From IMG/VR virus record IMGVR_UViG_3300022744_000026, positions 14,098 to 78,097 of that record: DNA of 64,000 nt; one strand, 5' to 3'. This document shows, in pieces, positions 15,903 through 42,637 of the stretch. A model generated the notes under the pieces. It was not told the DNA's origin. It saw only the letters and a list, made by a program, of their open reading frames with translations, and searched no databases. The first letter of the stretch is position 1. Every line of letters starts with the position of its first letter. This stretch comes from a virus. The position numbers and the translations under genes were made by a program.

Positions 15903-17645
15903 ATGGACACCGCACGCCACGTCGCCTTCAACCCTGCCGCTCCTGACGACGAGCGGCAGGACGCCCTGAGCGAGCTGACGAAGGCGCACATGCCGTCAGC
16001 GGCGCCAAGCTCCAACATGCTGGAGCTGGTGCAGTACGTGCGCGAGCAGTACGAGGCCGACAGCATGGAGAAGGCCATGCATGCGCAGAACGTGGTGCCT
16101 TTCCCCAGCATGGCGGCGCGCGAGCACAAGCCCGGCCAGCAGTCTGTGTGGCTGGATGACGTGCAACTGAACATCCAGGGCAACTGGTACGAGCGGCCGA
16201 CCGGGTTCAGCTTCGACGCCATGCGCGCCATGGTGCACGGCACGCCGTTGCTGAATGCGATCATCATGACGCGCCAGCGCCAGGTGGCGCGGTTCTGCCG
16301 TCAGAACGTGGTGGGCCGCGGGGAGGGCTTTCGCATCGCGCTGAAAGACCCCAAGGCCAACCCCGACAGCAGCCAGCAGGCAGCCATCGGTCTGATGCAG
16401 GACTTCTTCCAGAATTGCGGCTGGGAGCGCAAGGCGCGTCAGCGCATGCGGCTGCGGCGCGACAGCTTTGCGGGATTCATGACGAAATCCCTGCGCGAGA
16501 CCCTGACGCTCGACAGCATGCCGATCGAGACCGAATGGAAGCGCGACAAGCGCCTGGGACTCGACGGCATCTATGCCGTCGACGGCAGCACCATTCGCCT
16601 GTGCACAGAGCAGGGCTACGACGGCGACGACGAGATTTTCGCGCTGCAGGTGGTGCAGGGGCAGGTGCGCAGCGCGTACACCTACGACGACCTGATCTAT
16701 GTGCCGCGAAACCTGCGCGCCGACGTCACTGCTGGCGGCTACGGGCTGAGCGAGACGGAGATCCTCATCAAGGTGGTGACGGGCTTCCTGAACGCCTTCA
16801 CCTACAACACGGGGTACTTCGACAACAACAAGATCCCCAAGGGGATGCTGCACCTGACCGGCAACTACAGCGAGCAGGACATCAACGCCTTCAAGAGGCA
16901 ATGGAACGCCATGGTGAAGGGCGTGAACAACGCCTGGACGCTGCCGGTGATGGTGAGCAAGGATCAGGAGTCGAAGGCTGCCTTCGAGAACTTCGGCGCC
17001 GAGCAGAACGAAATCATGTTCGCCAAGTGGATGACCTTCCTGGCGAGCCTGGCGTGCGCAATCTACGCCATCGACCCGACCGAGATCAACTTCGAAGCGT
17101 TCACTGCCGGCACGTCGAGCCTCAGCGGCAGCGACACCGAGGAGAAGATCGCCCACAGCACCGACAAGGGCCTGCGGCCGATCCTGAGCTACTACGAAAG
17201 CCTGTTCACCGACTACGTGGTGAGCGAGTGGGGCGACGAGTACGTCTTCCGCTGGACCGGCCTGGACGACGAGGCGCCCGAGCAGATTTTCGAGCGCCAG
17301 AAGCTGGTGATGACCGTCAACGAGATGCGCGCGCTCGACAACATGGAGTCGATCGATGACCCATGGGGCGACTCGCCGATCAACCCGTCACTGCAGTCGG
17401 CCTGGCAGATGAGCCAGCAGCAGGGGCAGGAGGACTACGGCCAGCCAGGGGCGCCGCAGCCTGGCGCCGAGCAGCAGGGCGACGAGGACGGCCAGGACTT
17501 CGGCCAACCGCAGGCCGGCGACTTCGGGCAGCCGAAGCCTGACCAGCCCGAGCAGGCCGCGCCTGCCGAGCAGCCGCAGGACGCCGACACCGTCGCCAAG
17601 GCATTCGGCCTGCCGGCGCTGCCGATCTACGGGATCAACGAGTGA
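15903..17645 (+). CDS. Portal protein
   Basis: AVDGSTIR, GYGLSETE, YFDNNKIPKGML, KGLRPIL and MTVNEMR portal motifs. Confidence 0.9.
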   Translation: MDTARHVAFNPAAPDDERQDALSELTKAHMPSAAPSSNMLELVQYVREQYEADSMEKAMHAQNVVPFPSMAAREHKPGQQSVWLDDVQLNIQGNWYERPTGFSFDAMRAMVHGTPLLNAIIMTRQRQVARFCRQNVVGRGEGFRIALKDPKANPDSSQQAAIGLMQDFFQNCGWERKARQRMRLRRDSFAGFMTKSLRETLTLDSMPIETEWKRDKRLGLDGIYAVDGSTIRLCTEQGYDGDDEIFALQVVQGQVRSAYTYDDLIYVPRNLRADVTAGGYGLSETEILIKVVTGFLNAFTYNTGYFDNNKIPKGMLHLTGNYSEQDINAFKRQWNAMVKGVNNAWTLPVMVSKDQESKAAFENFGAEQNEIMFAKWMTFLASLACAIYAIDPTEINFEAFTAGTSSLSGSDTEEKIAHSTDKGLRPILSYYESLFTDYVVSEWGDEYVFRWTGLDDEAPEQIFERQKLVMTVNEMRALDNMESIDDPWGDSPINPSLQSAWQMSQQQGQEDYGQPGAPQPGAEQQGDEDGQDFGQPQAGDFGQPKPDQPEQAAPAEQPQDADTVAKAFGLPALPIYGINE

Positions 17646-18370
17646 AGACCGCCGCGCAGCAGCAGGCCCAGCCGATCCCCGGCTGCGCGCCTGGCGACGA
17701 GGTGTGGCTCAAGCACCCGGACGGGCCCGTGACCGCGAAAGTCCTGGCGCACGGGCAGCACGGTCTGACCGTCGACGTCGGCGGCAAGCAGCACCGCGTG
17801 AAGTGGGACAAGGTGCACGGGCACAAGCGGCGCACGGCCATCAACATGCAGGTCGAGGACGAGGGCGAGGATGGAATGGTGGTGCGCGACCAGCTCGGCC
17901 GGCGGCATTTCGTGGCAGTGCCTCCCGAGGCACGCGAGGAGCGGATGGTGGTGAAATCACATGGTGGCGGCGCCAGGCTGCTGGTGTTCGCAAAGGCGCT
18001 GAAGCAGCCCGAGAACGAGCAAGGCGGCTGGACCGAGGCGGGCAAGGCGCCGGCAAGCAAGGGCCATCACGTGGCGTTCCAGCACGGCGAGCACGCCGGC
18101 CGCGGCGAGGTGCAGGCGGCGGGCCGGGATGGCGTGACCGTGAAGGACGGCGCTGGCGCCAGCCATCAGGTGCCGCACAAGGCTATCACGCACCGGTGGG
18201 AAGGCAAAGAGGCGCCGACCGCTGGCCCTGGTGAGCCGGCCAGCCCGTCAGACGAGCTGCGCGAGTTCCTGGCCGGGCTGCTGAAAGACGCGCCGGACGA
18301 CGTGCAAAAGTGGATCGGCCAGTACGTGCAGAGCCAGTCGAGCGAAGAAAAAGCCGATCGGCCTGGTTGA
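17642..18370 (+). CDS. Hypothetical head-associated protein with SH3-like repeats
   Basis: GTGA overlap with the portal gene; two V.A.G..G.TV units; LLVFAKA tag. Confidence 0.7.
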   Translation: MKTAAQQQAQPIPGCAPGDEVWLKHPDGPVTAKVLAHGQHGLTVDVGGKQHRVKWDKVHGHKRRTAINMQVEDEGEDGMVVRDQLGRRHFVAVPPEAREERMVVKSHGGGARLLVFAKALKQPENEQGGWTEAGKAPASKGHHVAFQHGEHAGRGEVQAAGRDGVTVKDGAGASHQVPHKAITHRWEGKEAPTAGPGEPASPSDELREFLAGLLKDAPDDVQKWIGQYVQSQSSEEKADRPG

Positions 18371-18420
18371 AAGAGGTTAGAGTAGTGTCTCTGCTAAACC
18401 TCAACTCACCAGCAACTCAC

Positions 18421-18597
18421 ATGGCAACCACTTTCACCATCGGCCAAAAGGTCACCTACAAGCTGCACACCGGCCGCACCGGTTCGGGCGTCATCGACAG
18501 CATCAGCAACGGTGCGCGCGGCGCGTTCTACGCTGTCAAGCACGACGACGGTACGATCCTGAAGCTGCGTGCTGCGCAGATCACGTCGGCGGCCTGA
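18421..18597 (+). CDS. Small SH3/Tudor-like protein
   Basis: FTIGQKVTY...GSGVI...FYAVK pattern; good codon usage. Confidence 0.6.
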   Translation: MATTFTIGQKVTYKLHTGRTGSGVIDSISNGARGAFYAVKHDDGTILKLRAAQITSAA

Positions 18598-18615
18598 GCA
18601 GGCAGCGAGCGAGCC

Positions 18616-18858
18616 ATGATCATTCGCACTTCGCGGCACAGGTTCAATCTGCCGGTTTCACTGTGGGTCAGCCTCGCAGTAGCAGTCGTGGTGTCTGTGC
18701 TGGCCTTCTGGCTACCCATCCATGGGCGCGGCGATGTGTGGTGCAGCATCTGCGGATGCATTGCATGGCTCTGGTGCTTCGCTGAGCGCGACAAGCGCGC
18801 GGCTACCGTCTACGAACCGATGATCCAGCGCATCGATACGTTTGACCACCGATGGTGA
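18616..18858 (+). CDS. Small membrane protein
   Basis: Two hydrophobic segments. Confidence 0.45.
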   Translation: MIIRTSRHRFNLPVSLWVSLAVAVVVSVLAFWLPIHGRGDVWCSICGCIAWLWCFAERDKRAATVYEPMIQRIDTFDHRW

Positions 18859-18879
18859 GCAAAGCGCCCGGCACCCGCC

Positions 18880-19890
18880 GGGCCATCAAGTCAGCCGGCG
18901 TATGCCCGTTGACTTGATGGCCCCACATCCAAGGCTTGGCCCCTTGGAGTTCCCAGCGATGGGGAGATACACGAGACACGCTGCCTTATGCGAGTGTGGG
19001 GCCGTCAGCTATCACAGATGCGCCAGCCGGAAAGCCCGGCAACTGCGCGACAAACAGTCCCAAGCCTGGGGCATCTGTGATGGTTGCACGCAGAAATGCG
19101 CACATAGACCGACGAGGGAAGGCGTCTGCTGGACGACGCCGGAAGACGATACGCGGATCATCACCGCCCCTGCGACTCGGGTCTCAGTCTTCACCGACCA
19201 TCACCAAATTCCGGACCGCGGCCCACAGCGCGATGGGAATCAAAACAGGCTTTCTGTGGGCGAGCTGAGGCGCGCGAGATAAGCGCCACCGTGAGGCGGA
19301 CCGTTAAGTCGTCAACACCTGGGGCAGCCCGGGGCGCGCAGGGGTAGTGCCTGACAAACCACCCGGGGGAAGGGCCCGGGGCCACCGGATTGCGAGCAGC
19401 ACTGGCGACTGCAGCAGACTGTAAATCTGTAGCCCCTAGGGGCAACGGGGTTCGACTCCCTGGCAATCCACCACTGACCATCATCACAGCGGGTGAGCGC
19501 CTGCTGCGATGATGGCCGGCGCAGTCTTGGCCTCTGCGCATCGAGCCGCACACCCCGTGCGCGCCCGCGGTAAGCACCCTGCCTCATGGGATCGGTCGTC
19601 AACAGCCGTTGTAACGGATGCCGCTGGGCCTACGGCCGGAGTGCATCGCCGCAGTCTACGTAAGCGGCACAATCAACAAGCGGTGGGTAATCGGCCTAGA
19701 GTCGTCATCATCCCCCACTGGCCGGGAAACCGGCTGACGCGAATAGCCGATCTGCGGCGGTCTCGCGCCACAAGGTCGCCGCAGACTTCAGCGCCACCCC
19801 CGGGTGGCGTTGTCGTTTGTAACGTGCATCCTCCTCAGCGCCCCGTGGCGCCGTTGCCTACCCCCGCGCCTAGGCGGGTCACAAGCCCGG
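18880..19890 (+). ncRNA. Putative cluster of structured non-coding RNA elements around tRNA-Tyr
   Basis: Series of long inverted repeats; no convincing coding ORF. Confidence 0.45.
19387..19473 (+). tRNA. tRNA-Tyr (GTA)
   Basis: Acceptor GGATTGC/GCAATCC-A-CCA; anticodon arm GCAGA-CTGTAAA-TCTGT; long variable arm; GGTTCGACTCC T arm. Confidence 0.9.
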
Positions 19891-20550: not shown

Positions 20551-21453
20551 ATGAAGCGCATCCTTGCAGTGATCTGCCTGGGTGTCGCTTCGGCGGCATC
20601 CTGGGCGCAGTCCAGCGCGACGCAGCAAGCGGACGCGGCGGCGAGCAATGCCGGCGTGAGCACCGGCGTGCAGTCGCAGTCGAGCGCGCAGACGTGGGTG
20701 TTCCCGGCACCGGTGGCCCCGGGCATGGTTGTGGCGGCCAAGTGCACGAATGCCGGCGTCAAGTCGGCCGCGCTGCTGTTCAACTTGGTTTCGTGGTCCG
20801 TGCCTGACCGCGAGGTGTCGCTCGGCTGTCAGGCTGCGGCTGACATCGACATGCTGGTGCGGCTGTGCCAGTTCGGCGCCGCGGCGCGCGTGCAAGCGCA
20901 TTACCTGCGCGCGGCATACGGCATCGAGGTGGCGCCACACCCAGGCGCGGTCGACCTGGGGCCGGACGAGTGCTTCAAGCCGAAGGCGGCGCCAGCGCCT
21001 GTGCCCATCGAGGCGCTGCCGCCGACGTCGGCCGGGCCGGCGCCCGTGGCGCAGCCGGTGGTGGAGGTGCACCCGTTGCCGCCGGCACCGGCGCCTGCGC
21101 CGCCAGCGCCACCCGCCGCGGCGCAGCGCCAGCCGTTCGAAGTGACCGTCCTGTTCCCGTTCGACAAGTCAACTCTCGACGCGAACGCCCGCACAGCCCT
21201 GGACGTCGCTGCCAGGTACGTGCAAGCCACGCCAGCCGCCAAGCTGGTGCTGACCATCGGACACGCCGACCGCAAGGGCGCCGCCGCCTACAACGTCGAC
21301 CTGTCGCGGCGTCGCGCCGAGTCCGTGAGCGCATTCCTCTTGGCGGCCGGCGTGCGCCCCGAGATGATGCGCATCGAGTACCGAGGCAGCACCGAGCCCG
21401 TGTCACCGCAGGATGAGCGAAACCGACGCGCCACCTTGCAGGTGATTGAGTAA
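20551..21453 (+). CDS. Secreted OmpA-family (peptidoglycan-binding) protein
   Basis: Signal peptide; Pro-rich linker; VLFPFDKS, GHADRKG..YN..LS.RRA.SV and RNRR. Confidence 0.9.
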   Translation: MKRILAVICLGVASAASWAQSSATQQADAAASNAGVSTGVQSQSSAQTWVFPAPVAPGMVVAAKCTNAGVKSAALLFNLVSWSVPDREVSLGCQAAADIDMLVRLCQFGAAARVQAHYLRAAYGIEVAPHPGAVDLGPDECFKPKAAPAPVPIEALPPTSAGPAPVAQPVVEVHPLPPAPAPAPPAPPAAAQRQPFEVTVLFPFDKSTLDANARTALDVAARYVQATPAAKLVLTIGHADRKGAAAYNVDLSRRRAESVSAFLLAAGVRPEMMRIEYRGSTEPVSPQDERNRRATLQVIE

Positions 21454-21486: not shown

Positions 21487-22215
21487 ATGGGCGCTCTTTT
21501 ACTGGGGGATGTGATGAGTGATGTGACTTACTCGCAGTGGCTCGAAATGGGCTACACGAAGGTTTTGCTGGAGCAGATCAAGGGTATGGCAGGCGACTGC
21601 CCTGACCCTGGTGCCTGCGAGGCTGGCATGATCTGCCAGGCGGCTGCGGAGAGGTTGACGTCGGCGCAGCATGCCGACCATCTGCCGCCCGGCCACCCCG
21701 ATCGCGCCAAGGCATTCTTCGCCAGCCGGCCGATGCCGACCACTGCTCCGGTGGCGCCTCTGGCGGACACCATCCGCGCGATCGCAGAGAACGTCGATGT
21801 CACCGGCGCAGATGGGTATGGCAGTCTATGGCAAGCGCAGCCTGGCGACCCCGACGATCAGTGCACCACCCGTGAAGATGGCAAGCGCATGTACTTCGCG
21901 CCGACAACGGATTGGATCCCGACGTCGCATTCATCGGCTATTGATGCGACCGGCGCTCCCGACACCCAGTGCACCACCCACGGGGACGGCGAGTGCGACG
22001 CGCAGGGGTCTTGCATGCATGCCCCGCCCGCCGCATCGCGGGTGCCGCTGACGCCGGCACAGCAACATGCGGATGAACTGCGCAGCCTGCTGTCCGGCTG
22101 GGTCGACAGCTTTGCCGACTGCATCGAAGGCGGCGAGTCCGACGAGATGGTGGTGGCGACCCGCGCCGCGCTCGCAAAGACTGAGGCCTCCAGCCAGGAA
22201 GGCGGTGCAGCATGA
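21487..22215 (+). CDS. Hypothetical mosaic protein
   Basis: First gene of an ATGA-coupled cassette array. Confidence 0.55.
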   Translation: MGALLLGDVMSDVTYSQWLEMGYTKVLLEQIKGMAGDCPDPGACEAGMICQAAAERLTSAQHADHLPPGHPDRAKAFFASRPMPTTAPVAPLADTIRAIAENVDVTGADGYGSLWQAQPGDPDDQCTTREDGKRMYFAPTTDWIPTSHSSAIDATGAPDTQCTTHGDGECDAQGSCMHAPPAASRVPLTPAQQHADELRSLLSGWVDSFADCIEGGESDEMVVATRAALAKTEASSQEGGAA

Positions 22216-22505
22216 CCCACCGCGTCTACAAATACCAGCTACCCGGGCTGAGCGACTGGATCACCATGTGGATGCCCGCTGGCGCCGAGCCGCTGTGCGT
22301 TCAGGTGCAGAACGACCAGCCATGCATGTGGGCGCGGGTGGATATCAGCCAGCCACCCACAGTGTACCACTTCCGCGTCGCTGGCACGGGACACGACCTG
22401 GGGAGCAACGTTGGCAGGCACATCGGCAGTTTTCAGATGCACGGCGGCGCGCTGGTGTTCCACGTTTTTGCGGATGGGGTTGAGCAGAAAGGCGGTGCAG
22501 CATGA
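22212..22505 (+). CDS. Conserved hypothetical phage protein
   Basis: VYKY.L...MPAGA..L.VQ.Q...MWA.V...GTGH...IGSFQ...LVFHVF. Confidence 0.75.
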   Translation: MTHRVYKYQLPGLSDWITMWMPAGAEPLCVQVQNDQPCMWARVDISQPPTVYHFRVAGTGHDLGSNVGRHIGSFQMHGGALVFHVFADGVEQKGGAA

Positions 22506-23201: not shown

Positions 23202-24341
23202 ATGGCCCTACTTTTCGACCTCGCAGCCCTATCCGCACGCCAGACCGACGCGGTCCTGCATGACATTTTCTGCAAGGCCCACGGGCACGAGGGCGACGGC
23301 GATGGGATATGGGCACCGGTCGACAACCCGTTTCTGGAGCGGATCGTTCAGCTATTCAGCGACCGTGGCCTGATGCGGATCGGAAGGCTGCGCGACGAGC
23401 TGCAGGCGTGGCTGGCTGGGGACCGGCACCAGGCCGGCGAGGCGAAGCCGCGCCCGCCGACAGATCGCGTCGTCTGGACGGATCAGGAGCTTGGCGTGGT
23501 GCGCCTGTACCTGCGCTCTCTGCCGCCAGACGCATGGACGATTGACGATCACATGCTGCTGGTGGACTTCCTGCACCAGCGCTACATGAGCCCGGACGAC
23601 CTGCGCACGGAGGCCGATTGGCTGGCGAGCCGGTCCGTCCTCATGGGGCGCGTGCAGTCGCAGATGGACACGCTGACGACCAAGCAGGCTGACGCCGTAC
23701 TGGCGGCAGAGTCCGTCCCGGCATGGCCTGAACTCGCCGGGCAGGTGCTGTCATTCGCCCGCAACCGCTGCGCCGATGCCGTCACCAGGGTGAGCGAAGG
23801 CATGCGGCTGCAACTGCGCCAGACGATCGCTCAGGAGGTGGAGCAGGCGCACCTGGCGGGGCGGCCGGTGTGGTCGACGGCGCTTCAGACGAGGCTGCAG
23901 GATGAGTACATGGTGCAGAACAGGGACTGGCGGCGCGTGGCGCTCACCGAGTCAGCCGAGGCGCTGAATCAGGGGTTCGTGGCCTGCCAGGAGCCGGGCC
24001 AGAAGCTCAAGCGGGTGGAGCAGTACAAGGGCGTCTGCGCGTGGTGCGCGAAGATCGACGGGCGGGTGATGGAGGTGGTTGACCCGAGTGAGCCGGAGAA
24101 GGATGGGGAGAGGCAAATTTGGGTCGGGAAAACGAACGTCGGCCGAAGCGTGGCGCCTCGCAAGCGCGTGGGTGATCTGCTGGTGGAGCGTGAGCCGGAT
24201 GAGCTATACCATATCGCTTCCGGCGCCCAACATCCAAATTGCAGAGGCAGATGGGTTCCCGTCATCACCGACAAGCCCGGTGACGACCCTCAGTTCGGAG
24301 ACTGGTTGCGGGCTACTTTGCAGGGCGTGACGGCAGCATAG
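23202..24341 (+). CDS. Head morphogenesis protein (Mu gpF/SPP1 gp7-like)
   Basis: RDWRRVALTE, CAWC and HPNCRGRW. Confidence 0.8.
   Translation: MALLFDLAALSARQTDAVLHDIFCKAHGHEGDGDGIWAPVDNPFLERIVQLFSDRGLMRIGRLRDELQAWLAGDRHQAGEAKPRPPTDRVVWTDQELGVVRLYLRSLPPDAWTIDDHMLLVDFLHQRYMSPDDLRTEADWLASRSVLMGRVQSQMDTLTTKQADAVLAAESVPAWPELAGQVLSFARNRCADAVTRVSEGMRLQLRQTIAQEVEQAHLAGRPVWSTALQTRLQDEYMVQNRDWRRVALTESAEALNQGFVACQEPGQKLKRVEQYKGVCAWCAKIDGRVMEVVDPSEPEKDGERQIWVGKTNVGRSVAPRKRVGDLLVEREPDELYHIASGAQHPNCRGRWVPVITDKPGDDPQFGDWLRATLQGVTAA
24326..24339 (+). promoter_or_regulatory. Putative late promoter CGTGAC-GG-CAGCAT
   Basis: ATG 24346 follows 6 nt later. Confidence 0.75.
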
Positions 24342-25740: not shown

Positions 25741-25943
25741 CGCAGGGCTGGCACCCGCGCGAAGTCACCCAAGCCTGGGCCGTCATCTGGCCGGACGGGC
25801 GAATGCTTGCAGACACCAGCTTCAACGACGAGCAGCACGCTTGGCAGGTCTGCCTGGGTTGGCCGGATGCCGACGAGATCGAAGCGGCCAAGCGCAGGGG
25901 CGCAAGAGCAGTTCGAGTGACCGTCGTCGCGCCGGCATCGTGA
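25737..25943 (+). CDS. Hypothetical protein
   Basis: ATGA overlap with the upstream gene. Confidence 0.55.
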   Translation: MTQGWHPREVTQAWAVIWPDGRMLADTSFNDEQHAWQVCLGWPDADEIEAAKRRGARAVRVTVVAPAS

Positions 25944-25952
25944 CCCCACACT
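25939..25952 (+). promoter_or_regulatory. Putative late promoter CGTGAC-CC-CACACT (leadered)
   Basis: 40 nt before ATG 25979, with a GAGG ribosome-binding site between. Confidence 0.7.
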
Positions 25953-33678: not shown

Positions 33679-34470
33679 ATGAACAACCTTATCCCTTTTG
33701 AGTTCGACGGCGCTGCCGTGCGTGTTGTGACTGGAGGCGACGGCGAACACCAGTTCGTCGCGTCCGATGTCCTTGGTGTTCTCGCTCTTGACCGCAAAGC
33801 GCTGGAACGCCTGGATGACGATGAGAAGGGTGTGAGTTCAATTCACACCCCTGGTGGCCACCAGCAGATGACCACCATCAACGAGTCCGGCCTCTACAGC
33901 CTGATCCTCGGCAGCCGCAAGCCCGAAGCCAAGCGGTTCAAGAAGTGGGTCACCAGCGAGGTGCTGCCGGCCATCCGCAAGACCGGCGTCTACGCCACGC
34001 CGGCCGCCGCTGCGCCGACCGGTGATGATCTAAAGCTGTCGCTGCTTGAGTCCGCCGTGCGTCGCGGTCTGGTGAGCGCCCCGGCTGCGGAGATTGCCGC
34101 CCTGCGGATCATTGGCGTGGAGCCCGAGCCTGCGGTGCCAGCCGCCATCCTGCCGAGGATCGAGTCTTCGGACGTTCGTGTGGTGCCGTCTCCGCGCAAG
34201 CCGCGCGCACCGGCCGCGCCGAAGCCGAAGATCCAGCTCACGGCGAGTGTTTACGGCAGGATGCACTGGCCAGATGCGGCGCTGCGCGTTGAGTTGCACC
34301 AAGCGGAGGAGTGGTTGACGCAGAGTGAAAGCACGCTCTTGGCCGCAATGAAGGAGCGTGGCTATCTGGACGGCGAATTCGAGCCGACGCCAAAGGCCAA
34401 GAATCTGCGCGACAAGTACGGTTGGAAGCTGAGGGCGCTGCTCGGCGCGCTGGGCGTCTCGGCGTACTGA
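33679..34470 (+). CDS. Bro-N domain antirepressor-like protein
   Basis: FEFDG..VRVV...FVASDV...LDDDEKG...TPGG.Q.M..INESGLYSLIL.SRKPEAKRFKKWVTSEVLPAIRKTG. Confidence 0.92.
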   Translation: MNNLIPFEFDGAAVRVVTGGDGEHQFVASDVLGVLALDRKALERLDDDEKGVSSIHTPGGHQQMTTINESGLYSLILGSRKPEAKRFKKWVTSEVLPAIRKTGVYATPAAAAPTGDDLKLSLLESAVRRGLVSAPAAEIAALRIIGVEPEPAVPAAILPRIESSDVRVVPSPRKPRAPAAPKPKIQLTASVYGRMHWPDAALRVELHQAEEWLTQSESTLLAAMKERGYLDGEFEPTPKAKNLRDKYGWKLRALLGALGVSAY

Positions 34471-34485
34471 TGCCGCTAATGCCAT

Positions 34486-34499
34486 CGTGACCCCATCAT
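34486..34499 (+). promoter_or_regulatory. Putative late promoter CGTGAC-CC-CATCAT
   Basis: ATG 34506 follows 6 nt later. Confidence 0.75.
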
Positions 34500-34505: not shown

Positions 34506-37500
34506 ATGGCACTCATCCTGTTCCTCAAGGCATCGTCTATTCCGGCTGGCGCGCGCTGGATCAGCGTGCACCCCAATGGCGATGCTGGCCCGGCCCAGCC
34601 CATCCTGATCCAGCCGCAAGCTGACGGCAGCGCGAAGGTCATCGGCGGCGCAGGTGGCAGCCTCAACCACATGCGCATCCGCGCCGTGCGCAGCGAGGCC
34701 GAGTACAAGGCTGAGGCCGAGAAGTCCCGCGCCGAGAAGACCGCACAGAAGAAGGCGCAGACCCTGGCGGACAAAGCCGCCGGCATCCACGAGTCCAAGA
34801 AGAAGGCGCGCGACGCCGTGACTGCGCAGCGGCGCAAGGCACAGCAGGAGTTCGTGCAGACGGTCGCGGAGGCTGCCGGGTGGAAGCCGGAGCAACTGGC
34901 GCCGCCCGATGTGTCCGGCCTGAGCGAAGGCGCCGCGCGCAAAGCGGTCGACCAGCACCACCGTGAGATTTTCCAGAAGGCCCGGGAGGTCGTTGAGCAG
35001 CAGCGCCAGCGGCTGGTGCACGACTCGGACGCCCGCGCGCAGGCTGGTCTGGGCGAGGTGCCGCTTGAGTCCAGCAAGCCCGAAGACCTGTCCGTGCAGG
35101 ATCTGGCGCCGGTGCAGACGGGCAACAGCGGGCTGGGGTTCTCTGCCGAGTACGGCAAGCGCGCCGCGGCGGCCGGGCTGACTGCCGAGGAGAAGTCCGC
35201 CGAGGCCGGCGCTGCCAAGCCGCCGCTCACCGACGAGCAGCGCAAGGCGGCCGTCGAGCGCGGCGAGGCAAAGAAGCTCATCAAGAAGGAGCTTGAGGGC
35301 ATCAAGCAGGCCGAGCGGCCCAAGGTGGCTGTCGACCTGATCGACGCGAAGAAGGCGGCCGACCTGCTGCGCGCCGAGAAGAAGATGCAGGCGCTGGAGA
35401 AGCAGGCTCGGCAGGCCACCAAGCAGATTGACGACTCGAAGACCGAGCCCAAGGCGTTTGTTCTGGAGTACACGGCCGACGATGACGTCGACGCGAAGAT
35501 CAAGCAGGACATCGATGACGAACTCGCCACGGTAGCGACCACGTCATTTCTCAACGAAGTCGGCAAACTCGCAGACGGCGACCCGCGCGATCGCCTGGGC
35601 AAGCACGTCGGCCACGGCGCCTACAACGCGATCAACGCTGTGTCGCTGGCTGTTGGTGGCGACGCGCTGATCGACCGCTCTGTCGTGGACGTGCTGGGCA
35701 TTGATGCAGCCACGCAGATCCTGGCGCGCCGCGTGCAGCGCGACATGCCCGACCAGGCTGAGCGGATTGCGGAAGGCGTCAAGGCGTTCCATGCTGACAC
35801 GCACGCCGCCACCACGGCCCGCGCGCTGACGCAGGCCGCGCAGCTCACTGATGCCGCGAAGGCGATCGAGCTGCCGGACGGCGAGACGGCCACGGACCTG
35901 CAGACCGCGCAGGAGTTGAACGCCAAGCGCCGCGCCGCGGTCGGCGACGCGCAGCGCATCCTGGGGCAGGTCTACGGCGAGCAGGAGGCCAATGCGAGCA
36001 TGGTGATGGCGCTGAGCCGCAAGGCGCGCGACAAGTTGGATGTGCCGATGGGCAAGGGCAGCATCGAGTCGGCGATCACGCAGGCTCGGGCGCTGGGCCT
36101 GCAGCGCGGCGAGTACACCATCGAGCAGCGCGCCGGCCAGACGTGGCTGACTGTGCACGATACCGGCATGGACCGGCTGGCGAAGCCGATCCAGCGCGCG
36201 GACGTCGAGCAACTGCGCGACAACCTCGACATCATGTCCGGTGCACATGACGAGGACGGATGGATGCCGAAGGGCGTGGCGGACAGGCCGGACTTGGACT
36301 TGAGGCCTGAGCCTGGCGTGGCGCCGCGGCTGGGGAGTGAGTTCGCCCCCGAGGCTGGAGGCGACATTGAGCAGCACCTGCGCGACTACATCGGCGGGCG
36401 GGCGGCGGATGGGGACACGCCGTCTGACATCCTGGCGGATGTCCAGTCGGCCGAATTCTTCCGCAAGGCTGGCGACACGGCCGCCTACCGGGCAGCGCTG
36501 GATGCCGTGGCGCCGAACGACAACGGACAGGTGCGCGCGGAGGCCATGGGCCCGGCGTTCGATCGCTATGCCGACGACTTCGTGAAGCGCGAGTATGGCG
36601 GCGCGCGCAGCGCGCTGAACAGCCAGCAGGTGAAGGTTGACGACGTTGCCGGCGAGGCGCTGCACCGCGCCCTGGCCGAGCACCCGGACGGCGTGGCGGC
36701 GTTCAAGGCGATCGGCGACCTGACGAACAAGGACCAGCGCACCCTGCGAGAGTTCTTTCACCGCGAGATTGCGAAAGAGGATCCCGAGGCGGCGGCCACC
36801 CGCCACCAGTTGGAGGCGCATACTGCCGCCGAGCCCGAGCGCGAAACCGAAGACATGTTCGGCGAGCGCACCGAAAACCCCGAGTGGTCGGAGTGGCGCA
36901 GCAAGCGCGACGAGCTGGCGGGAAAGCTAAGCGCCGGCAGCCTGGACTGGGCGAAGTACGCCGACACGCACCGTGGCCATGAGAAAGCCTACGAGTCGAT
37001 TCAGGACATCATCCGTGGCCGCGTGAGCGAGGCATTCGCGCGGCACCACAACACGCTGCGGCCCAATGAGCCGGTCAAGGTCGGCCGGTCGGTCATCCGC
37101 AACAACCTGAACCACCTCGATGCCACGGACCCGGCTGCGCGCGCCGATCGGGAGCGCAAGGAAAGCGAGTTGCGCGACAGCCTGCGCGAGCGCGTGCAGG
37201 GCCGGTACGCGGCCGGCGGCGTCAGCGACAAGCTGGATGCGGCGCGCGACCAGCGCGAGGCATTCGAGCAGGCGCAGATGGGGTTCTTCGGTGGCGACGA
37301 GCCGGCGGCAGGCGCGCAGGCTGGAAAGCTGGCGCCTGACCTGAAGGCCGGCGACGAGCGCCACACCCTAGGACACGCCGCCGAGCGCCAACTCGCCGGC
37401 CTGGTGGCACGCATGGGCGGCAACTTCAAGCCCGGCCAGCCGGTCAAACTGTTCCGCCCCACCATGTCCGGCGGCGACAACTACGCGCGCCAGCGCGCCA

Positions 37501-39035
37501 TCAAGCTGATCGAGAAAAACAAGCGCATGGGCCTGCACCTGGGTGCCGGGTCAGGCAAGACCCTGGTGAGCCTGGGTGCGTTCACGCACATGAAGGCACA
37601 GGGCAAGGCCAGCCGCGCGATCTACGCCGTGCCCAGCATCGTGCAGGGGCAGATGGGCGCGGAGGCGCTGCGGTTTCTGGAGCCAGGCAAGTACAACTGG
37701 CACTGCCAGCCTGGCGCCAGCCGGGATGAGCGGATCGCGGCTTACAAGAATCCTGCGCACGATTTCTGCGTGGTCACGCACCAGTCGCTGCGCGACGACC
37801 TGATCCACCTTGGTGCTGAGCATGCCGGCATCGAGCCGGACGCCATGCGCGAGAAGCTGGGCACGATGCGCCGCGGCGAGCGCAAGGAGTGGGCCAGCAA
37901 GGTGCTGGAGCATCACGGCATCCACTTCGACTTCTCGGCAGTGGATGAGGGGCACAACCTGCTGGACCGCGCCGGCAAGGCCGACTCTGCGATGTCGGTT
38001 GCGATCGGCGGGCTGACGGATCACACGCCGTACCACCTCAGCATGACTGCCGACCCGGTGCGCAACAACGACGCCAGCGAAGTGTTTTCTGCCCTGCAGA
38101 AGGTCGCACCAGACCGCTACACCGACCGCGCCGAGTTCATGCGCCGCTACGGCCCGGACACCGTGGCATCGAAGGACGGCCTGCAGCGCGAGATGGCGCG
38201 CTACTTCTACGCGCACAGCATCACGCCGGACGTGAAGGCCACCAGCCAGGAAATCAAAGTGCCGCTGCACGAGGAGCAGAAGACCGCCATGGCGCAGCTC
38301 GACCGCGACATCTCGACCATGAGGCTGGCGCGCATGCGCAAGACCGTGGACGTGGAGACCGCCAAGCGGGTGAGCCCGGGTGCGTTCGAGGGCGTGCCAG
38401 AGGACAAGCACGAGGCCGTCGCCAAGGGGCTGCAGGACTCCATCGGCATCGTGCGCGAGACCGCGACGCAGCGCGTCATCAACGCCCACCCGAAGGCCGA
38501 GAAGATGACCGAGCTGGTCAAGCAGATCAAGGCGCGCCCCGGCAAGGCCGGCGTGGTGTTTGTGCACAGCCTGGAAAGCGTGGAAGCCATCAAGCAGCGG
38601 CTCGAAGGCGAGGGCATGCGCGTGGTGACGATCAGCGGGTCCGACTCCAGCGAGGAGAAGGACCGCAAGCGCAAGATGTTCAGCCCGGACTCAGGCGAGG
38701 CGCAGGCCGATGTGCTGGTGGCGAGCGATGCCGCCAGCACGGGGCTGAATGCGCAGAGGGGGCAGTATCTGGTGCAGTACGACACGCCCGCGACGGCGGT
38801 GACACACGCTCAGAGGCGGGCCCGCATCCATCGCACGGGACAGAAGCAAGACATCGACCTCATCGACTTGGTGGCGGACCATCCGTCCGAGCGCAAGGCG
38901 CGCGACCGGCTGGCGAAGAAGTACAGCATGCGGCAGGTGATGACCTCACCCCTGGAGAAGGTGGACGATACCGGCGTGGCTGCGTATCTGAACGCGCGCA
39001 AGGTGCAACAGGACGAGCAGAGCGGGTTGTTTTGA
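34506..39035 (+). CDS. Large polyvalent protein with a C-terminal SF2/SNF2-like helicase
   Basis: GAGSGKT, VDEGH, MTADP, STGLNAQ and QRRARIHRTGQ. Confidence 0.85.
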   Translation: MALILFLKASSIPAGARWISVHPNGDAGPAQPILIQPQADGSAKVIGGAGGSLNHMRIRAVRSEAEYKAEAEKSRAEKTAQKKAQTLADKAAGIHESKKKARDAVTAQRRKAQQEFVQTVAEAAGWKPEQLAPPDVSGLSEGAARKAVDQHHREIFQKAREVVEQQRQRLVHDSDARAQAGLGEVPLESSKPEDLSVQDLAPVQTGNSGLGFSAEYGKRAAAAGLTAEEKSAEAGAAKPPLTDEQRKAAVERGEAKKLIKKELEGIKQAERPKVAVDLIDAKKAADLLRAEKKMQALEKQARQATKQIDDSKTEPKAFVLEYTADDDVDAKIKQDIDDELATVATTSFLNEVGKLADGDPRDRLGKHVGHGAYNAINAVSLAVGGDALIDRSVVDVLGIDAATQILARRVQRDMPDQAERIAEGVKAFHADTHAATTARALTQAAQLTDAAKAIELPDGETATDLQTAQELNAKRRAAVGDAQRILGQVYGEQEANASMVMALSRKARDKLDVPMGKGSIESAITQARALGLQRGEYTIEQRAGQTWLTVHDTGMDRLAKPIQRADVEQLRDNLDIMSGAHDEDGWMPKGVADRPDLDLRPEPGVAPRLGSEFAPEAGGDIEQHLRDYIGGRAADGDTPSDILADVQSAEFFRKAGDTAAYRAALDAVAPNDNGQVRAEAMGPAFDRYADDFVKREYGGARSALNSQQVKVDDVAGEALHRALAEHPDGVAAFKAIGDLTNKDQRTLREFFHREIAKEDPEAAATRHQLEAHTAAEPERETEDMFGERTENPEWSEWRSKRDELAGKLSAGSLDWAKYADTHRGHEKAYESIQDIIRGRVSEAFARHHNTLRPNEPVKVGRSVIRNNLNHLDATDPAARADRERKESELRDSLRERVQGRYAAGGVSDKLDAARDQREAFEQAQMGFFGGDEPAAGAQAGKLAPDLKAGDERHTLGHAAERQLAGLVARMGGNFKPGQPVKLFRPTMSGGDNYARQRAIKLIEKNKRMGLHLGAGSGKTLVSLGAFTHMKAQGKASRAIYAVPSIVQGQMGAEALRFLEPGKYNWHCQPGASRDERIAAYKNPAHDFCVVTHQSLRDDLIHLGAEHAGIEPDAMREKLGTMRRGERKEWASKVLEHHGIHFDFSAVDEGHNLLDRAGKADSAMSVAIGGLTDHTPYHLSMTADPVRNNDASEVFSALQKVAPDRYTDRAEFMRRYGPDTVASKDGLQREMARYFYAHSITPDVKATSQEIKVPLHEEQKTAMAQLDRDISTMRLARMRKTVDVETAKRVSPGAFEGVPEDKHEAVAKGLQDSIGIVRETATQRVINAHPKAEKMTELVKQIKARPGKAGVVFVHSLESVEAIKQRLEGEGMRVVTISGSDSSEEKDRKRKMFSPDSGEAQADVLVASDAASTGLNAQRGQYLVQYDTPATAVTHAQRRARIHRTGQKQDIDLIDLVADHPSERKARDRLAKKYSMRQVMTSPLEKVDDTGVAAYLNARKVQQDEQSGLF

Positions 39036-39049: not shown

Positions 39050-39304
39050 ATGACCCACCCACGCCAACACCTAGCCGACCTCGCCGCCCTGTCCCACAAG
39101 ACCGAGCAGGCCGAGCGCAACATCCTGGCGCGCGCCGAGTCGGCGCTTGCGCGGTGCCAGTCCGACATTGACCGGCTGCGGCCGGCTGCGCTGGTGCCTG
39201 GCGCCAGCGAGGCGATGGAGTATCAGCAGGCGGTGATGGACCGCGGGCGGCTGCAGGTGGTGATTGCGCAGGCGAGGAAGCTGCTGGAGAAGGCGAATGG
39301 CTGA
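39050..39304 (+). CDS. Hypothetical protein, probably leaderless
   Basis: TAAATT (39038-39043) lies 6 nt before the ATG. Confidence 0.6.
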   Translation: MTHPRQHLADLAALSHKTEQAERNILARAESALARCQSDIDRLRPAALVPGASEAMEYQQAVMDRGRLQVVIAQARKLLEKANG

Positions 39305-39587: not shown

Positions 39588-40511
39588 ATGCACGATGCAT
39601 CCAGCCTGCCCGACTTCATCAGCATCTCGGGCTTGTTCAAGGCGATGCCCCAGTCCGAGGGTGGGCAGCGCTTCGTGTACTTCGAGGCATCGAACGAAGG
39701 TCTGGACCAGCAGAACGAGATCGTGAGTGCGAAAGCGCTGGGTGAGTCGAAAGACTACTACCTCCGCTACGGCAACATTGACATAGATCATTTGACCCTG
39801 ACCGGCCGCCCGAACCCGGCGAAGGGCTATCCCGGCATCCCGGACTACATGAGCTACGAGATTGGCGTGCCCGTTGAGGTGCGCCAGTCCGGCAAGACGA
39901 CGTTCGTCAAGAGCCAGATCAAGTCCGGCGAGGGCCCTGCGGCCGAGAAGGCGAACCAGTTCTGGAACAGCCTGATGACGAACCCGCCGACCCGCTGGTA
40001 TCCCAGTGTCGGCGGCGCCATCGACCCCGAAGGGCGGATTGTCGAACTGGACCCGGCCACCGGCGCCAAGAAGGTGATCATCACCAAGGTGCGCTGGACG
40101 AACATCGGCGTGAGCCTCACGCCCGTCAACCAGCATGTCCCCGGCTGCGCCACGGTGCCGATCGGCGCCTTCGCCAAGTGCCACACGCCTGGTGGCGGAT
40201 TAGACCTGACCAAGGCCCTGACCGCCGGCTACGGCTCCGATTCCGCCACCCTCACCGGCGGCGCAGCCCTGCGCATGCAGTCGCTCGACGGCGCCGTGCG
40301 CGACACCACCGTGCCCACGCCCCAATACTGGACATGGCGCGACAAGATGGCCGGCGCCATTCGTGACGGCAGCATTCGCATACCGAACGCTGAGGGCTTG
40401 ATTGCCCACAGCGCCACTACCTACGGCATGCCCCTGTCCGATGCCGCGGAATACGTGGAGCGCTTTTTGCGCGACCTGAAACACGGACTATCTCGACGGA
40501 GAAACGCATGA
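39588..40511 (+). CDS. Prohead protease
   Basis: EAS.E..DQQNE, GNIDIDH, PSVGG and PVN motifs; position before scaffold and capsid genes. Confidence 0.8.
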   Translation: MHDASSLPDFISISGLFKAMPQSEGGQRFVYFEASNEGLDQQNEIVSAKALGESKDYYLRYGNIDIDHLTLTGRPNPAKGYPGIPDYMSYEIGVPVEVRQSGKTTFVKSQIKSGEGPAAEKANQFWNSLMTNPPTRWYPSVGGAIDPEGRIVELDPATGAKKVIITKVRWTNIGVSLTPVNQHVPGCATVPIGAFAKCHTPGGGLDLTKALTAGYGSDSATLTGGAALRMQSLDGAVRDTTVPTPQYWTWRDKMAGAIRDGSIRIPNAEGLIAHSATTYGMPLSDAAEYVERFLRDLKHGLSRRRNA

Positions 40512-41164
40512 GCGGCAACTTTGACGCCCTTCTGGCCGAACTGAATGACGAAGTGGCTGGCATGGCCAAGGCGATGCCGGCTGGTGACGATCTGGACGAC
40601 GAGGACGAAGACAGCAACACCGTCGACACGGCCGACACCGACAAGAAGGTGATGGCTGCTGGTGACGGCGACGCCGACGACGCTGGCGGCGATCCCGATG
40701 GCGACGAAGACGACAAGCCGATGATGGGCAAGAGCATGACCGTCGAAATCGACGGCAAGCAAGTCGAAGCCATCGACGGCACCGAACTGGTGAAGTCGCT
40801 GATGGGCCAGGTCGAGCAGTTGGGCGGCAAGCTCGGCGCTACCGAAGCCAGCCTCGCCAAGGCTCTGTCGGACACGCTGGCCGTGGTGAAGGGCCAGGGC
40901 GCCGTCATCAAGTCGCTGCAGGAGACCGTCACCAAGCTGGCCGCTGCCGGCCGTGGCCGCAAGTCGGTCGTCACCGTCGCCGACCCGGCGCCGATGGCGA
41001 AGTCGGCCGGCGCCGCCGCCCCGCTGCAGGGCCGTGAACTCATGGCCAAGGCCCTTGCTGCACAGCAGGCCGGACGCCTGACCGGATTGGACGTCGCCCG
41101 CGTCGAGTCTGCAATCAACCAGGGCGCGCCGGCTCCTGCCGACGTTCTTTCTCGCATCAACTGA
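40508..41164 (+). CDS. Putative scaffold protein
   Basis: Acidic N-terminus, coiled coil and many xK(A/S) sites; lies between protease and capsid genes. Confidence 0.7.
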   Translation: MSGNFDALLAELNDEVAGMAKAMPAGDDLDDEDEDSNTVDTADTDKKVMAAGDGDADDAGGDPDGDEDDKPMMGKSMTVEIDGKQVEAIDGTELVKSLMGQVEQLGGKLGATEASLAKALSDTLAVVKGQGAVIKSLQETVTKLAAAGRGRKSVVTVADPAPMAKSAGAAAPLQGRELMAKALAAQQAGRLTGLDVARVESAINQGAPAPADVLSRIN

Positions 41165-41176
41165 CCAGGAGGCCCC

Positions 41177-42637
41177 ATGGCACTCGAAGACATTGTGAAC
41201 AGCTCTGTGCCCGGCGGCTCGACCGTGATGGGCGAGATGGGCGACGCTGACCTGCAGGCGCTGCACAAGGCGCTGACGGCCGGCTACGGTTCGGACACCA
41301 ACGGCCTGACGGGTGGCTCTGCCTTCCGCATCCAGTCGCTGGACACCACGCTCAAGGCGACGGTGCAGGACAACAGCCACTTCGCGCTGTTCAATGCCCT
41401 GAGCAAGCCGCGTGCGACCGCGGTGGTCGATGAATGGACCGAACAGGATTCCATCGGCGGCTTCCTGGGCGGCACGTTCAACGATCAGGACGGTACGGCG
41501 CAGGAAACGAATGGTTCCTACACCCGCCGGACCGCGAACGTGAAGTACCTGATGACGTACCGCAAGGTGCCCATCGTGCTGCAGCAGCAGAGCAACATCA
41601 CCGACGTGGTCGCCATCGAGACGGTCAACGGCACCAAGCAGCTCCTGACCGACATCGAGCACGGCCTGTTCGAGGGCGATTCGTCCATCCTGCCGAAGTC
41701 GTTCGACGGCATCTATGCGCAGATGGCCGGCTTCAATGGTGGCGCGAACATCTTCGACATGGCTGGCCAGCCGCTGAACACCATCGACCCGATCAGCCGC
41801 GCTGCTGAACAGGTCTTCGGCTACGGCTCGTTTGGCAAGCTGACCCACCTGTACCTGCCGCCGGCCATCCAGTCGGACCTGAATGCAGGCCTGGACCCCG
41901 CCTTCCGCGTCGCGCTGGACAACAGCCCGAACAGCGTGATGCTGGGCACCCACGTGTCGGGCATCCGCACCAGCTATGGCAACATCGCCACCACGACGGA
42001 CGTTTTCGTGCGCGACGAGCGCATGAAGAAGCCCTTCGAAGTGCGCAATGCGACCCACCTGGCTGTGTCGGCTGCGAACATCGCGTTCAAGCCTGCCTCG
42101 TTCACGGCTGTGGCTGGCGTCGGCGCCAGTGATTCCGCCTGGGGTTCGACCCATGCCGGCAACTACTTCTACGCCGTGACCGGCATCAACCACAACGGCG
42201 AGACCGCCGCTCTGGTGTCGGCCAGCGTGACCGTGGCGGCCACCCAGCAGGTGACCATCACCATCACGCAGTCGGCCAGCGGCACGGAAACCGGCTACGT
42301 CATCTACCGCAGCCGCAAGAACGGCACCAGCGCACTGACCGACCTGCGCGAGATGACCAAGGTCGCCAAGGCCGGCGCCACCACCACGTTCATCGACAAG
42401 AATCGCGTGATCCCGGGCTCGACCCGCGCCTACGCGCTGAACCTGTCGCCGAGCGATGGCAGCATCGACTGGAAGCAGTACCTGCCGATGATGAAGATCC
42501 CGATGGCCGCGGTGCAGTCGCCGATCATCCCGTGGCTGCAGATGATCTGTGGCTACATGCGCGTGACCAAGCGCGCGCACCATGTTGTCTTCGACAACGT
42601 CGTGCCCAGCGGCGCGAGCTGGAAGCCGTTCGTCTAA
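41177..42637 (+). CDS. Major capsid protein (Herelleviridae-like)
   Basis: KALTAGYG...AFRIQSLD N-arm; LFEGDS...SFDGI; GYVIYR; strong ribosome-binding site and codon bias. Confidence 0.88.
   Translation: MALEDIVNSSVPGGSTVMGEMGDADLQALHKALTAGYGSDTNGLTGGSAFRIQSLDTTLKATVQDNSHFALFNALSKPRATAVVDEWTEQDSIGGFLGGTFNDQDGTAQETNGSYTRRTANVKYLMTYRKVPIVLQQQSNITDVVAIETVNGTKQLLTDIEHGLFEGDSSILPKSFDGIYAQMAGFNGGANIFDMAGQPLNTIDPISRAAEQVFGYGSFGKLTHLYLPPAIQSDLNAGLDPAFRVALDNSPNSVMLGTHVSGIRTSYGNIATTTDVFVRDERMKKPFEVRNATHLAVSAANIAFKPASFTAVAGVGASDSAWGSTHAGNYFYAVTGINHNGETAALVSASVTVAATQQVTITITQSASGTETGYVIYRSRKNGTSALTDLREMTKVAKAGATTTFIDKNRVIPGSTRAYALNLSPSDGSIDWKQYLPMMKIPMAAVQSPIIPWLQMICGYMRVTKRAHHVVFDNVVPSGASWKPFV

Follow-up and report, generated by a model that had tools for sequence, protein, structure and literature searches.

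A lysine-ended hydrophobic motif common to head proteins and head-adjacent enzymes of an SPO1/Twort-type myophage: a candidate signal for cargo loading and release

The window analysed here, 64,000 nucleotides of IMG/VR virus record IMGVR_UViG_3300022744_000026 (bases 14098-78097 of a single 78,097-bp contig, 65% G+C), carries a head module of the SPO1/Twort type and, within it, genes for predicted anti-defence enzymes. A short motif, hydrophobic-x-K/[AS] (the slash marks the predicted cut), recurs in conserved positions of the portal, protease, scaffold and capsid proteins, and it also ends hydrophobic tags borne by several of the enzymes encoded between portal and protease. Loading of injected anti-defence enzymes is understood in detail for T4 alone and in part for P1, and for polyvalent proteins it is no more than predicted. 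The arrangement described below suggests plug-in loading and release of such enzymes in the capsid of a different kind of phage.

The head module and its cargo genes

The window reads as late genes of a myophage with a 78-kb contig, one of the PHB04/Mecenats66 group. Among phages in culture it stands closest to Pseudomonas phage Touem01, Morganella phage Mecenats66, Bordetella phage PHB04, Aeromonas phage ST4 and Pseudomonas phage Dolphis; by capsid, it has remoter relatives in the SPO1/Twort-like Herelleviridae and in Thermus myophages. The gene order protease, scaffold, capsid and the homology of the capsid protein place the head module in the SPO1/Twort type, and the longer order of portal, variable cargo genes, protease, scaffold and capsid is common to the relatives. 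Neck and tail genes lie downstream of the capsid gene. Genes of the polyvalent-protein repertoire sit between the portal gene (15903) and the protease gene (39588), among late or virion genes. In window coordinates, the genes that matter most are:

15903-17645, + strand: portal protein (Pfam Phage_portal, phrog_12)
17642-18370, + strand: post-portal cargo-type protein with two repeat domains, recognised from its translation and homologue layout (gene 17642)
23202-24341, + strand: minor head protein resembling MuF and SPP1 gp7 (phrog_581 at 4e-5)
24346-25740, + strand: Acb1 (2H phosphoesterase), ART-PolyVal and a helical tail in one protein (Pfam Acb1, ART-PolyVal), here called Acb1-ART
25979-30982, + strand: 1667-residue polyvalent protein with N6-methyltransferase, zinc metallopeptidase (HEWFH) and LPD1, here called the methylase giant
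34506-39035, + strand: 1509-residue superfamily 2 (SF2) helicase, a DarB-like cargo protein (Pfam Helicase_C, ResIII; phrog_62)
39050-39304, + strand: small conserved gene 3' of the helicase gene, 84 residues
39588-40511, + strand: prohead (head maturation) protease (phrog_1028 at 3e-23)
40508-41164, + strand: scaffolding protein, 218 residues
41177-42637, + strand: major capsid protein of SPO1/Twort type (phrog_752 at 8e-78)

Candidate cut sites in the head proteins

Written loosely as [LIVMF].K[AS], the motif occurs 35 times in the head-module set, defined as the plus-strand proteins that begin with the portal and end with the capsid; shuffling of residues gives 15.6 ± 3.7, and none of 1000 shuffles reaches 35. 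All other proteins of the window hold 21 copies against 15.3 when shuffled, a difference that is not significant. This comparison of head with non-head proteins had been set beforehand as a check, and enrichment in the head set is what it returned. The motif had been singled out in an earlier note on this DNA; all of the strings quoted there, those from the protease, scaffold, portal and capsid included, are present in the translations of the genes to which they were assigned, and the pattern turned out to be stronger than was stated there.

Alignments of 11-12 relatives (six for the portal) gave conserved K[AS] columns in each of these proteins: one for the capsid, five for the protease (among 11 relatives), seven for the scaffold and a pair for the portal. 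When head and tail proteins were compared in the same six genomes, the full hydrophobic-x-K[AS] motif was found in 12 of the 34 conserved-Lys columns of capsid, protease, scaffold and portal, against none of the 32 such columns in seven tail and neck proteins. The motif is thus head-specific, and widely conserved across relatives out to SPO1.

The capsid site, LHK31/A32 (nt 41267-41272), stands directly 5' of the conserved ALTAGYG, and its column is kept in all 12 relatives; the SPO1 equivalent is LNK/ALEAGH. Maturation is predicted to occur at this bond and to leave ALTAGYGSD as the mature N-terminus. Among structures, the capsid protein matches PDB 9vel (SPO1 Gp6.1) at 1.5e-31 and 5lii at 4e-15, and LHK31/A32 aligns with VVK24/S25 of the 463-residue staphylococcal phage capsid protein in 5lii. 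In PDB 9row the capsid chain of the staphylococcal protein has 439 residues and begins at S25, a start that fits propeptide loss after Lys in the staphylococcal phage and agrees with the K-S cut that the earlier note gives for Twort/A511-type capsids.

The protease is identified as such from its membership of PHROG 1028, its gene position, a conserved His (NIDIDH) and an invariant Ser (PSVGG); the His is kept in all relatives but SPO1, and the two residues might be catalytic. It carries sites of its own at GLFK18/A19, which would end an N-terminal propeptide, and at LTK209/A210, after which the sequence echoes the mature N-terminus of the capsid protein (K/ALTAGYGSD..LTGGAALRMQSLD). SPO1 gp3.2 shares both features, with ILK/S near its N-terminus and LDK/SLEAGY internally. 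By imitating the capsid arm, this stretch may serve to dock the protease inside the prohead. The echo runs, at nucleotide level, from 40206 to 40330 in the protease gene (residues about 207-247) and from 41261 to 41380 in the capsid gene (residues about 29-68).

The scaffold has seven loose matches in its 218 residues. Seven hydrophobic-x-K/[AS] sites (K21, K75, K96, K118, K135, K165 and K181) are conserved in an alignment of 11 relatives with a mean identity of 36%; in the six-genome set, six of the seven conserved-Lys columns bear the motif, and 11 sites of this kind are present in the scaffold of SPO1. In the portal protein, the columns of K57/A58 (nt 16071-16076) and K566/A567 (nt 17598-17603) are both kept in six of six relatives, and a cut at the second would remove a 14-residue C-terminal tail. 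The MuF-like protein, matched weakly by Pfam Phage_Mu_F (0.027) and by TIGR01641 (0.019), begins with a hydrophobic stretch, MALLFDL, and has a site at FCK25/A26 (nt 23274-23279), with an equivalent of the form I/L-Y/F-K/[AS] in four relatives. Given the conserved sites and the start of the shorter PDB capsid chain in a related phage, we consider it likely that the prohead protease cuts after Lys in hydrophobic-x-K/[AS].

N-terminal tags on the giants and on other cargo

A stricter form of the motif, [LIVMF]{3}.K[AS] within the first 22 residues, was sought in the genes of this genome and of 11 related loci. It heads 9 of the 57 genes that lie between portal and protease, and none of the 362 other genes (Fisher p = 9e-9). 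Helicase orthologues among the nine are not independent of one another, and the tag also heads non-orthologous proteins.

As the earlier note had it, the two giants begin with such tags, MLILFAK7/S8 on the methylase giant (nt 25979-26002), where a hairpin-like peptide extends to H34 (nt 26080), and MALILFLK8/A9 on the helicase (nt 34506-34532). The helicase provides the deepest comparison. It matches phrog_62 from profile position 1, and among 120 homologues all 109 N-termini inspected carry the tag, with the consensus M-x(0-12)-[P/R/L]-[I/V/L]-L-[F/L]-[L/I/V]-K-[A/S]. The tag Lys (K8) is invariant in 67 aligned homologues, in which positions P5-P2 read I/V, L, F/L, L. The peptide before the Lys varies from 6 to 19 residues, and the spacing from the tag to the IPxGARWITVHPNG domain is constant; even in Thermus phage Lalka27a, PVILWAEPALLAK/A is retained directly before that domain. 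An AlphaFold2 model of the helicase N-terminus (67 alignment rows, mean predicted local distance difference test score, or pLDDT, of 82) has residues 1-16 as coil of modest confidence and the first beta-sheet from residue 17.

In the relatives, tags stand on proteins of quite different kinds. PHB04 has MIVFLK/A on a (p)ppGpp-related enzyme, MGAVVLLK/A on a protein of 169 residues and MIILLTK/A on its methylase giant; Mecenats66 has TIRYFLK/A on ORF50, ST4 has MRLLLLK/S on an ADP-ribosyltransferase, and related locus L014 has METKILFFK/S on a 626-residue zeta-toxin-like protein. The tagged proteins of Mecenats66 and ST4 are further giants, placed outside the portal-protease zone. The proposal that the tag is portable among unrelated enzymes is borne out by its occurrence with (p)ppGpp-related, methylase, helicase, ART, InPase, PBECR3, Zeta toxin, NUDIX, DdrB-ParB and Acb1 proteins.

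Within the giants, matters are otherwise. The only motif match of the methylase giant that aligns with a tag in PHB04 and L014 is the N-terminal one; its internal matches at K455, K1015, K1654 and K1660, like K158 and K654 of the helicase, are not conserved in homologues. Composition alone predicts about four loose motifs per giant, and ten giants together hold 40 against an expected 46.5. A depletion, as though cargo avoided a motif that is always cut, was considered, and the difference is not significant and lends no support either way. With the N-terminal site alone conserved and the internal matches at chance, the two giants are probably trimmed of 7-8 residues and stay whole. The claim that the giants are cut into free effectors is therefore not supported, and a polyprotein reading of the two is rejected on the ground of their non-conserved internal sites; the string LAKA does occur near the end of the 1667-residue protein, but its K1660 site is not kept in homologues. 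Apart from LPD1, the methylase giant has a sub-threshold MTS match in Pfam, a match to phrog_15406 and a sub-threshold CLCA_X match at residues 1321-1443.

Two other readings of the N-terminal tag were set aside. A signal peptide is at odds with its length of only 6-13 residues, its want of Cys and its internal occurrences. A codon constraint from leaderless mRNA is at odds with the 20-nt leader of gene 25979, with the internal copies and with lower-GC relatives (49-53% G+C) that have the same residues.

Paired sites between domains

Acb1-ART and gene 17642 have no N-terminal tag. Each has instead internal double-site cassettes, in which a hydrophobic-x-K/[AS] site is followed by a hydrophobic peptide of 3-11 residues and a second K/[AS]. 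In Acb1-ART the first cassette is PMAK/ALPLVLLFK/S (residues 145-158; M146-S158 = nt 24781-24819), with the peptide SMVPTYTRHDGTVVQAH directly behind it (ending near nt 24885), and the second, after the ART domain, is DITK/ALAGARVVLRK/S (residues 401-416; I402-S416 = nt 25549-25593). Gene 17642 has MVVK/SHGGGARLLVFAK/A between its two repeats (residues 102-119, nt 17945-17998). The same layout is found in its homologues in PHB04 (LVTK/SLGADGRVLLFFK/A) and L014 (VMVK/SANPRILFLK/SHV...), which extend into C-terminal regions that gene 17642 is without. Cassettes in homologues take forms such as PMTK/SAGPVLLLAK/A, PMKK/SIPLVLFFK/A and VMVK/SANPRILFLK/S.

The cassettes of Acb1-ART lie exactly where the earlier note had put them, at the domain boundaries. 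Pfam matches place Acb1 (PF23474, 5.4e-40) at residues 6-144 and find ART-PolyVal at 2e-27, and both 2H motifs of the form H-x-T/S are present (HVTQ and HVTI); the Acb1 domain is assigned on these grounds to the phosphodiesterase family that counters CBASS (cyclic oligonucleotide-based antiphage signalling). AlphaFold2 (46-row alignment, mean pLDDT 80.5) gives confident Acb1 (7-143) and ART (235-400) domains, and pLDDT falls below 50 only at 144-160, 185-195, 219-225 and 406-420, the first and last of which hold the cassettes. By this model and that of the helicase, the tags are predicted to lie outside folded domains.

Acb1-ART is probably a polyprotein; only for it, and for gene 17642 with its homologues, is polyprotein behaviour predicted. 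A double cut would free a peptide about as long as the N-terminal propeptides, which makes an internal domain resemble a pro-protein in which the initiating Met is replaced by the upstream site. Giant polyvalent proteins thus need not be cut up; here the small Acb1-ART and the post-portal protein alone look like polyproteins. Some cargo proteins of the relatives end in a first site and a greasy tail, as in AMIK/ALVLFLAARPAN of PHB04, LQK/AAPFSKMIMLIRRT and ILRK/SLLK/SMIVVWRVKK, and these ends look like remnants of cassettes from split cargo fusions. The greasy-tail genes are:

locus L001, 12545-13054
locus L001, 8224-9705
locus L014, 262-2142

Two side observations concern Acb1. The G+C content at third codon positions is 0.74 in the Acb1-ART gene (window 25040-25560) against 0.82-0.88 in its neighbours. 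Elsewhere, an Acb1 domain very often forms part of a fusion with a portal protein (PF06381, PF04860, PF06074), an XkdF-type protease (PF14550) or DUF2213, which suggests that Acb1 is commonly a virion passenger that travels by several routes.

A peptide that follows many tags

Many tags, often internal ones, are followed by a conserved peptide of 20 residues, [AS]HVxxYTRKDGTxVxxHxD. Here it is represented by the peptide behind the first cassette of Acb1-ART and by a longer variant in the methylase giant; the helicase has its tag without it. A 48-position profile of tag plus peptide, run against 1.84 billion proteins, matched 575 cluster representatives with E <= 1e-3, and with E <= 1e-10 it matched 44. 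The best 147 proteins contain 197 peptide cores, 95 of which have K[AS] exactly 8 residues upstream, with 48 N-terminal and 47 internal. In 92% of those 95, F, L or M occupies position P3, and L predominates at P4. A second K[AS] stands 5-16 residues upstream in 33 of the 47 internal copies.

Pfam domains on 53 tagged proteins were InPase, ART-PolyVal, PBECR3, Zeta toxin, NUDIX, DUF6900, LPD3, DdrB-ParB and Acb1; leaving NUDIX and DUF6900 aside, this is the polyvalent-protein repertoire. A DNA pattern of the tagged peptide found 31 IMG/VR loci, and in fetched stretches of at most 14 kb, 21 of the 31 have homologues of terminase, portal, MuF, protease, capsid or helicase as found in this clade. 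Neither the HVxxYTRKDGT peptide nor its tandem hairpin repeat falls under any Pfam family, and neither of the strings YTRKDGT and ILFLKA occurs in any paper of the searchable literature. Two to seven tandem copies of the hairpin core, V-x-V-x-G-Y-x-R-K-D-G-T-Y-V-x-P-H-x-R, are seen as well in proteins with signal-peptide-like N-termini (P0129, P0138, P0144, P0157, P0185 and others), which have PV or DV in place of K[AS].

Late promoter-like elements

The sequence CGTGAC-N3-A-N3-T occurs in 15 copies, against 1.7 expected, over 10957-63289 of the window, and is taken as a putative late promoter. Copies lie, for example, at 15883, 23182, 24326, 34486, 39567, 49508, 58725 and 63276; those before the large cargo genes are:

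24326-24339, + strand: element of the Acb1-ART gene
25939-25952: element of the methylase giant
34486-34499: element of the helicase

From the start of the element to the start codon is exactly 20 nt for nine genes, among them portal, MuF-like, Acb1-ART and helicase; for the protease gene it is 21 nt, and for gene 25979 it is 40 nt, with GAGG. The constant 20-nt spacing points to leaderless late mRNAs, gene 25979 excepted, and the spacing supports both the annotated N-termini and co-expression of the cargo with the head genes. Each of the three large cargo genes does have its own copy, as the earlier note observed, but this does not set cargo apart, as most late genes have one.

Proposed mechanism and alternatives

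The reading that in our judgement best explains the whole, and to which we give somewhat better than an even chance, is that a greasy propeptide tag loads the cargo, that the prohead protease releases it and that it is delivered with the DNA. Head-adjacent cargo enzymes, served by the same late promoter-like elements, would be made with a hydrophobic propeptide of 6-13 residues ending in a cut site, placed at the N-terminus of the methylase and helicase giants and within the double-site cassette in gene 17642 and Acb1-ART. For loading, the greasy propeptide would dock the cargo on the assembling core (scaffold, protease or shell interior), after the manner of the T4 capsid-targeting sequence and of DarB of phage P1; that it does address cargo to the prohead is a part of the proposal on which we see the chances as evenly divided. 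For release, the protease would remove the propeptide, leaving Acb1, ART and the helical tail separate and taking 7-8 residues from the giants, and the HVxxYTRKDGT peptide would become the mature N-terminus after the cut. The cargo would presumably then exit with the DNA and act ahead of any expression of phage genes; if their homologues are a guide, CBASS would be the target of Acb1, and restriction that of the methylase and helicase, as with DarB. Of the earlier note, the head-specific motif, the portable tag and the tags at the domain boundaries of Acb1-ART are retained here, and its giants as polyproteins are given up; the pairing of sites in the internal tags, the 20-residue peptide and the want of an N-terminal tag on Acb1-ART and gene 17642 are additions to it.

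A broader scheme, which we advance tentatively and hold at slightly less than even chances, is a three-part grammar shared by a large SPO1-headed clade: a greasy capsid address, K/[AS] as the point of release and, to retain or eject the cargo, an interchangeable basic peptide of which HVxxYTRKDGTxVxxH is one example. Any enzyme domain, single or strung like beads, could then be inserted and delivered with the DNA. If it is true, this grammar, and not the peptidases of the polyvalent proteins themselves, would explain their loading and disassembly.

Several results weigh against the proposed reading. The protease, assigned to a PHROG family only, has no sequence match in Pfam or NCBIfam, even at loose thresholds, or in the PDB, and certain of the K[AS] columns kept in the scaffold and the protease may reflect helices or strands and not cut sites. 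The loose motif inside the ten giants stands at chance level, neither enriched nor depleted, which means that the four-residue form alone is uninformative and that sequence alone cannot define a site. Since Acb1-ART and gene 17642 are tagged internally only, an N-terminal signal is not a general requirement, and the same zone holds untagged genes (OmpA-like, DUF7352, Bro-N and small open reading frames). Virion proteomics for PHB04, Mecenats66 or the Thermus phages did not turn up in a literature search.

The alternative that survives best, and which we nevertheless think unlikely, makes the tag a protease site and nothing else. Positions P6-P2 would then be extended recognition, and the cargo would be recruited by the MuF-like protein, by the HVxxYTRKDGT peptide or by folded domains. 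It draws on the match between ordinary scaffold and capsid sites and the tags at P3, P1 and P1', on the absence of an N-terminal tag from Acb1-ART and gene 17642, on the conserved post-tag peptide, which could be the actual handle, and on the other phages that load Acb1 by direct fusion to portal or protease. Yet at P6-P4 the tags far exceed the conserved scaffold, capsid and portal sites in hydrophobicity, and internal linkers retain the full greasy peptide with its second upstream site (the 33 of 47 above), where a single site would be enough to split domains. The helicase, moreover, is tagged without the peptide.

That the module is never cut, its hydrophobic strand and hairpin serving to bind or oligomerise (with a partner, DNA or a membrane) and K[AS] being a structural turn, strikes us as decidedly improbable. 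The K[AS] junction has the P3-P1' pattern of the conserved capsid, scaffold, protease and portal sites; the helicase and other proteins bear the tag free of any hairpin; the tag regions are coil or of low confidence, outside the folded domains in both models; and the length before the Lys varies freely from 6 to 19 residues. These facts outweigh, in our view, the occurrence of the HVxxYTRKDGTxVxxH core in tandem repeats without K[AS] (PV or DV instead), by which it can be an independent unit, and a weak two-strand hairpin that AlphaFold2 places at 163-171 of Acb1-ART.

We think it very unlikely that the cargo's own zinc metallopeptidase, and not the prohead protease, does the processing. The 1667-residue protein has an HExxH region and the CLCA_X-like match below threshold, and passages of Iyer et al. 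(PMC5512222) predict autoprocessing by such domains, but K/[AS] sites are conserved in capsid, scaffold, protease and portal of Dolphis and SPO1, whose head-gene stretches, as far as they were fetched, yielded no tagged giant. A chance four-residue string in a Lys-poor, Ala-rich proteome would account for the roughly four loose motifs per giant and for their chance level there, and is rejected, at a probability that we regard as negligible, by the shuffles, the test of gene position, column conservation and homologues that number in the hundreds.

Comparison with known systems

The internal proteins of T4 are delivered to the prohead with a cleavable capsid-targeting sequence (PMC9024508). That system (IPI-III and Alt, with the gp21 protease) resembles the one proposed here in that unrelated proteins, packaged in T4 and predicted to be so here, have a short N-terminal peptide in common. 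In T4 this peptide ends in the motif of the phage's own protease, and many copies of that motif are cut in the scaffold; here the tag and the scaffold carry the candidate motif in the corresponding way. The cargo includes an ADP-ribosyltransferase and anti-restriction functions, in our case by prediction. The differences are several. Position P1 is Lys here, in hydrophobic-x-K/[AS], where T4 uses Glu in L/I-x-E; the head module is of SPO1/Twort type, with a phrog_752 capsid, and not of the gp21/gp23 lineage; and the tag is strongly hydrophobic, occurs also in internal double-site cassettes, is often joined to a conserved 20-residue peptide and is a prediction from sequence. With Lys at P1 and a different head lineage, the system would work like the T4 capsid-targeting sequence but stand outside that family.

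For phage P1, the signal at DarB's N-terminus that suffices for packaging lies within the first 30 residues, and the Dar proteins are without a consensus (PMC9024508). As in the Dar system (DarB, Ulx, DarA, Hdf), a giant methyltransferase/helicase is encoded with head genes and a small gene follows the helicase. Here, unlike in P1, the methylase (25979) and the helicase (34506) are separate proteins, the tag has a clear consensus, and the capsid cut is predicted after Lys rather than after Glu (E120/S121). P1 is absent among the 18 phage records matched by the helicase (tblastn, E <= 1e-5). The small gene 39050-39304, which matches no family in Pfam or NCBIfam, has a similar small open reading frame 3' of the helicase in PHB04, Mecenats66 and IMG/VR loci. 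It may be a Ulx-like partner, an analogy that comes solely from a Thermus phage preprint in which DarB-like and Ulx-like proteins of related phages are proposed to be packaged.

For polyvalent proteins, packaging and self-processing by a metallopeptidase are predicted in passages of Iyer et al. 2017 (PMC5512222). The repertoire described in those passages is present here (ART-PolyVal, LPD1, metallopeptidase, methylase, SF2 helicase and 2H phosphoesterase), and the late-gene setting is alike, as is the prediction that the proteins are packaged and injected; the passages of PMC5512222 that a term search returns contain no shared tag, cut-site cassette or HVxxYTRKDGT peptide. In SPN3US, N-terminal propeptides identified by mass spectrometry are cut by the prohead protease at a consensus, and T4-like targeting has been suggested (PMC10052503). 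In phiKZ and SPN3US (proteases gp175 and gp245), as is proposed here, a single motif marks where N-terminal propeptides are removed from many proteins of the head and of ejection; that motif ends in Glu, there is no short consensus tag, and the cleavages are proven by mass spectrometry, whereas ours are read from sequence.

A tag that matches the head protease motif offers a sequence rule by which virion cargo and early counter-defence proteins may be predicted in hundreds of uncultured phages, and it names the exact residues to probe in cultured PHB04, Mecenats66 and ST4. It might also serve, being short, to bring foreign proteins into a second type of capsid, other than that of T4.

Other features of the window

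The 78.1-kb contig has no terminal repeat that we could find, and the cultured relatives have 86-95 kb; the genome is possibly incomplete. The remaining features, some of which lie in the cargo zone, are:

11641-13737: terminase
13734-14105: YspA/SLOG-family protein, untagged, 3' of the terminase gene
19387-19473: tRNA-Tyr, an untagged passenger of the zone
20551-21453: OmpA-family protein with a signal peptide-like N-terminus, untagged
22212-22505: DUF7352 protein, untagged
33679-34470: Bro-N protein, untagged
47953-48660: low-GC GIY-YIG/NUMOD3 homing endonuclease between neck genes, untagged

The untagged genes of the zone (OmpA-family, DUF7352, Bro-N and tRNA-Tyr) need not be cargo. By tblastn, the capsid protein matched 95 Bacillus and 12 Staphylococcus records, along with others.

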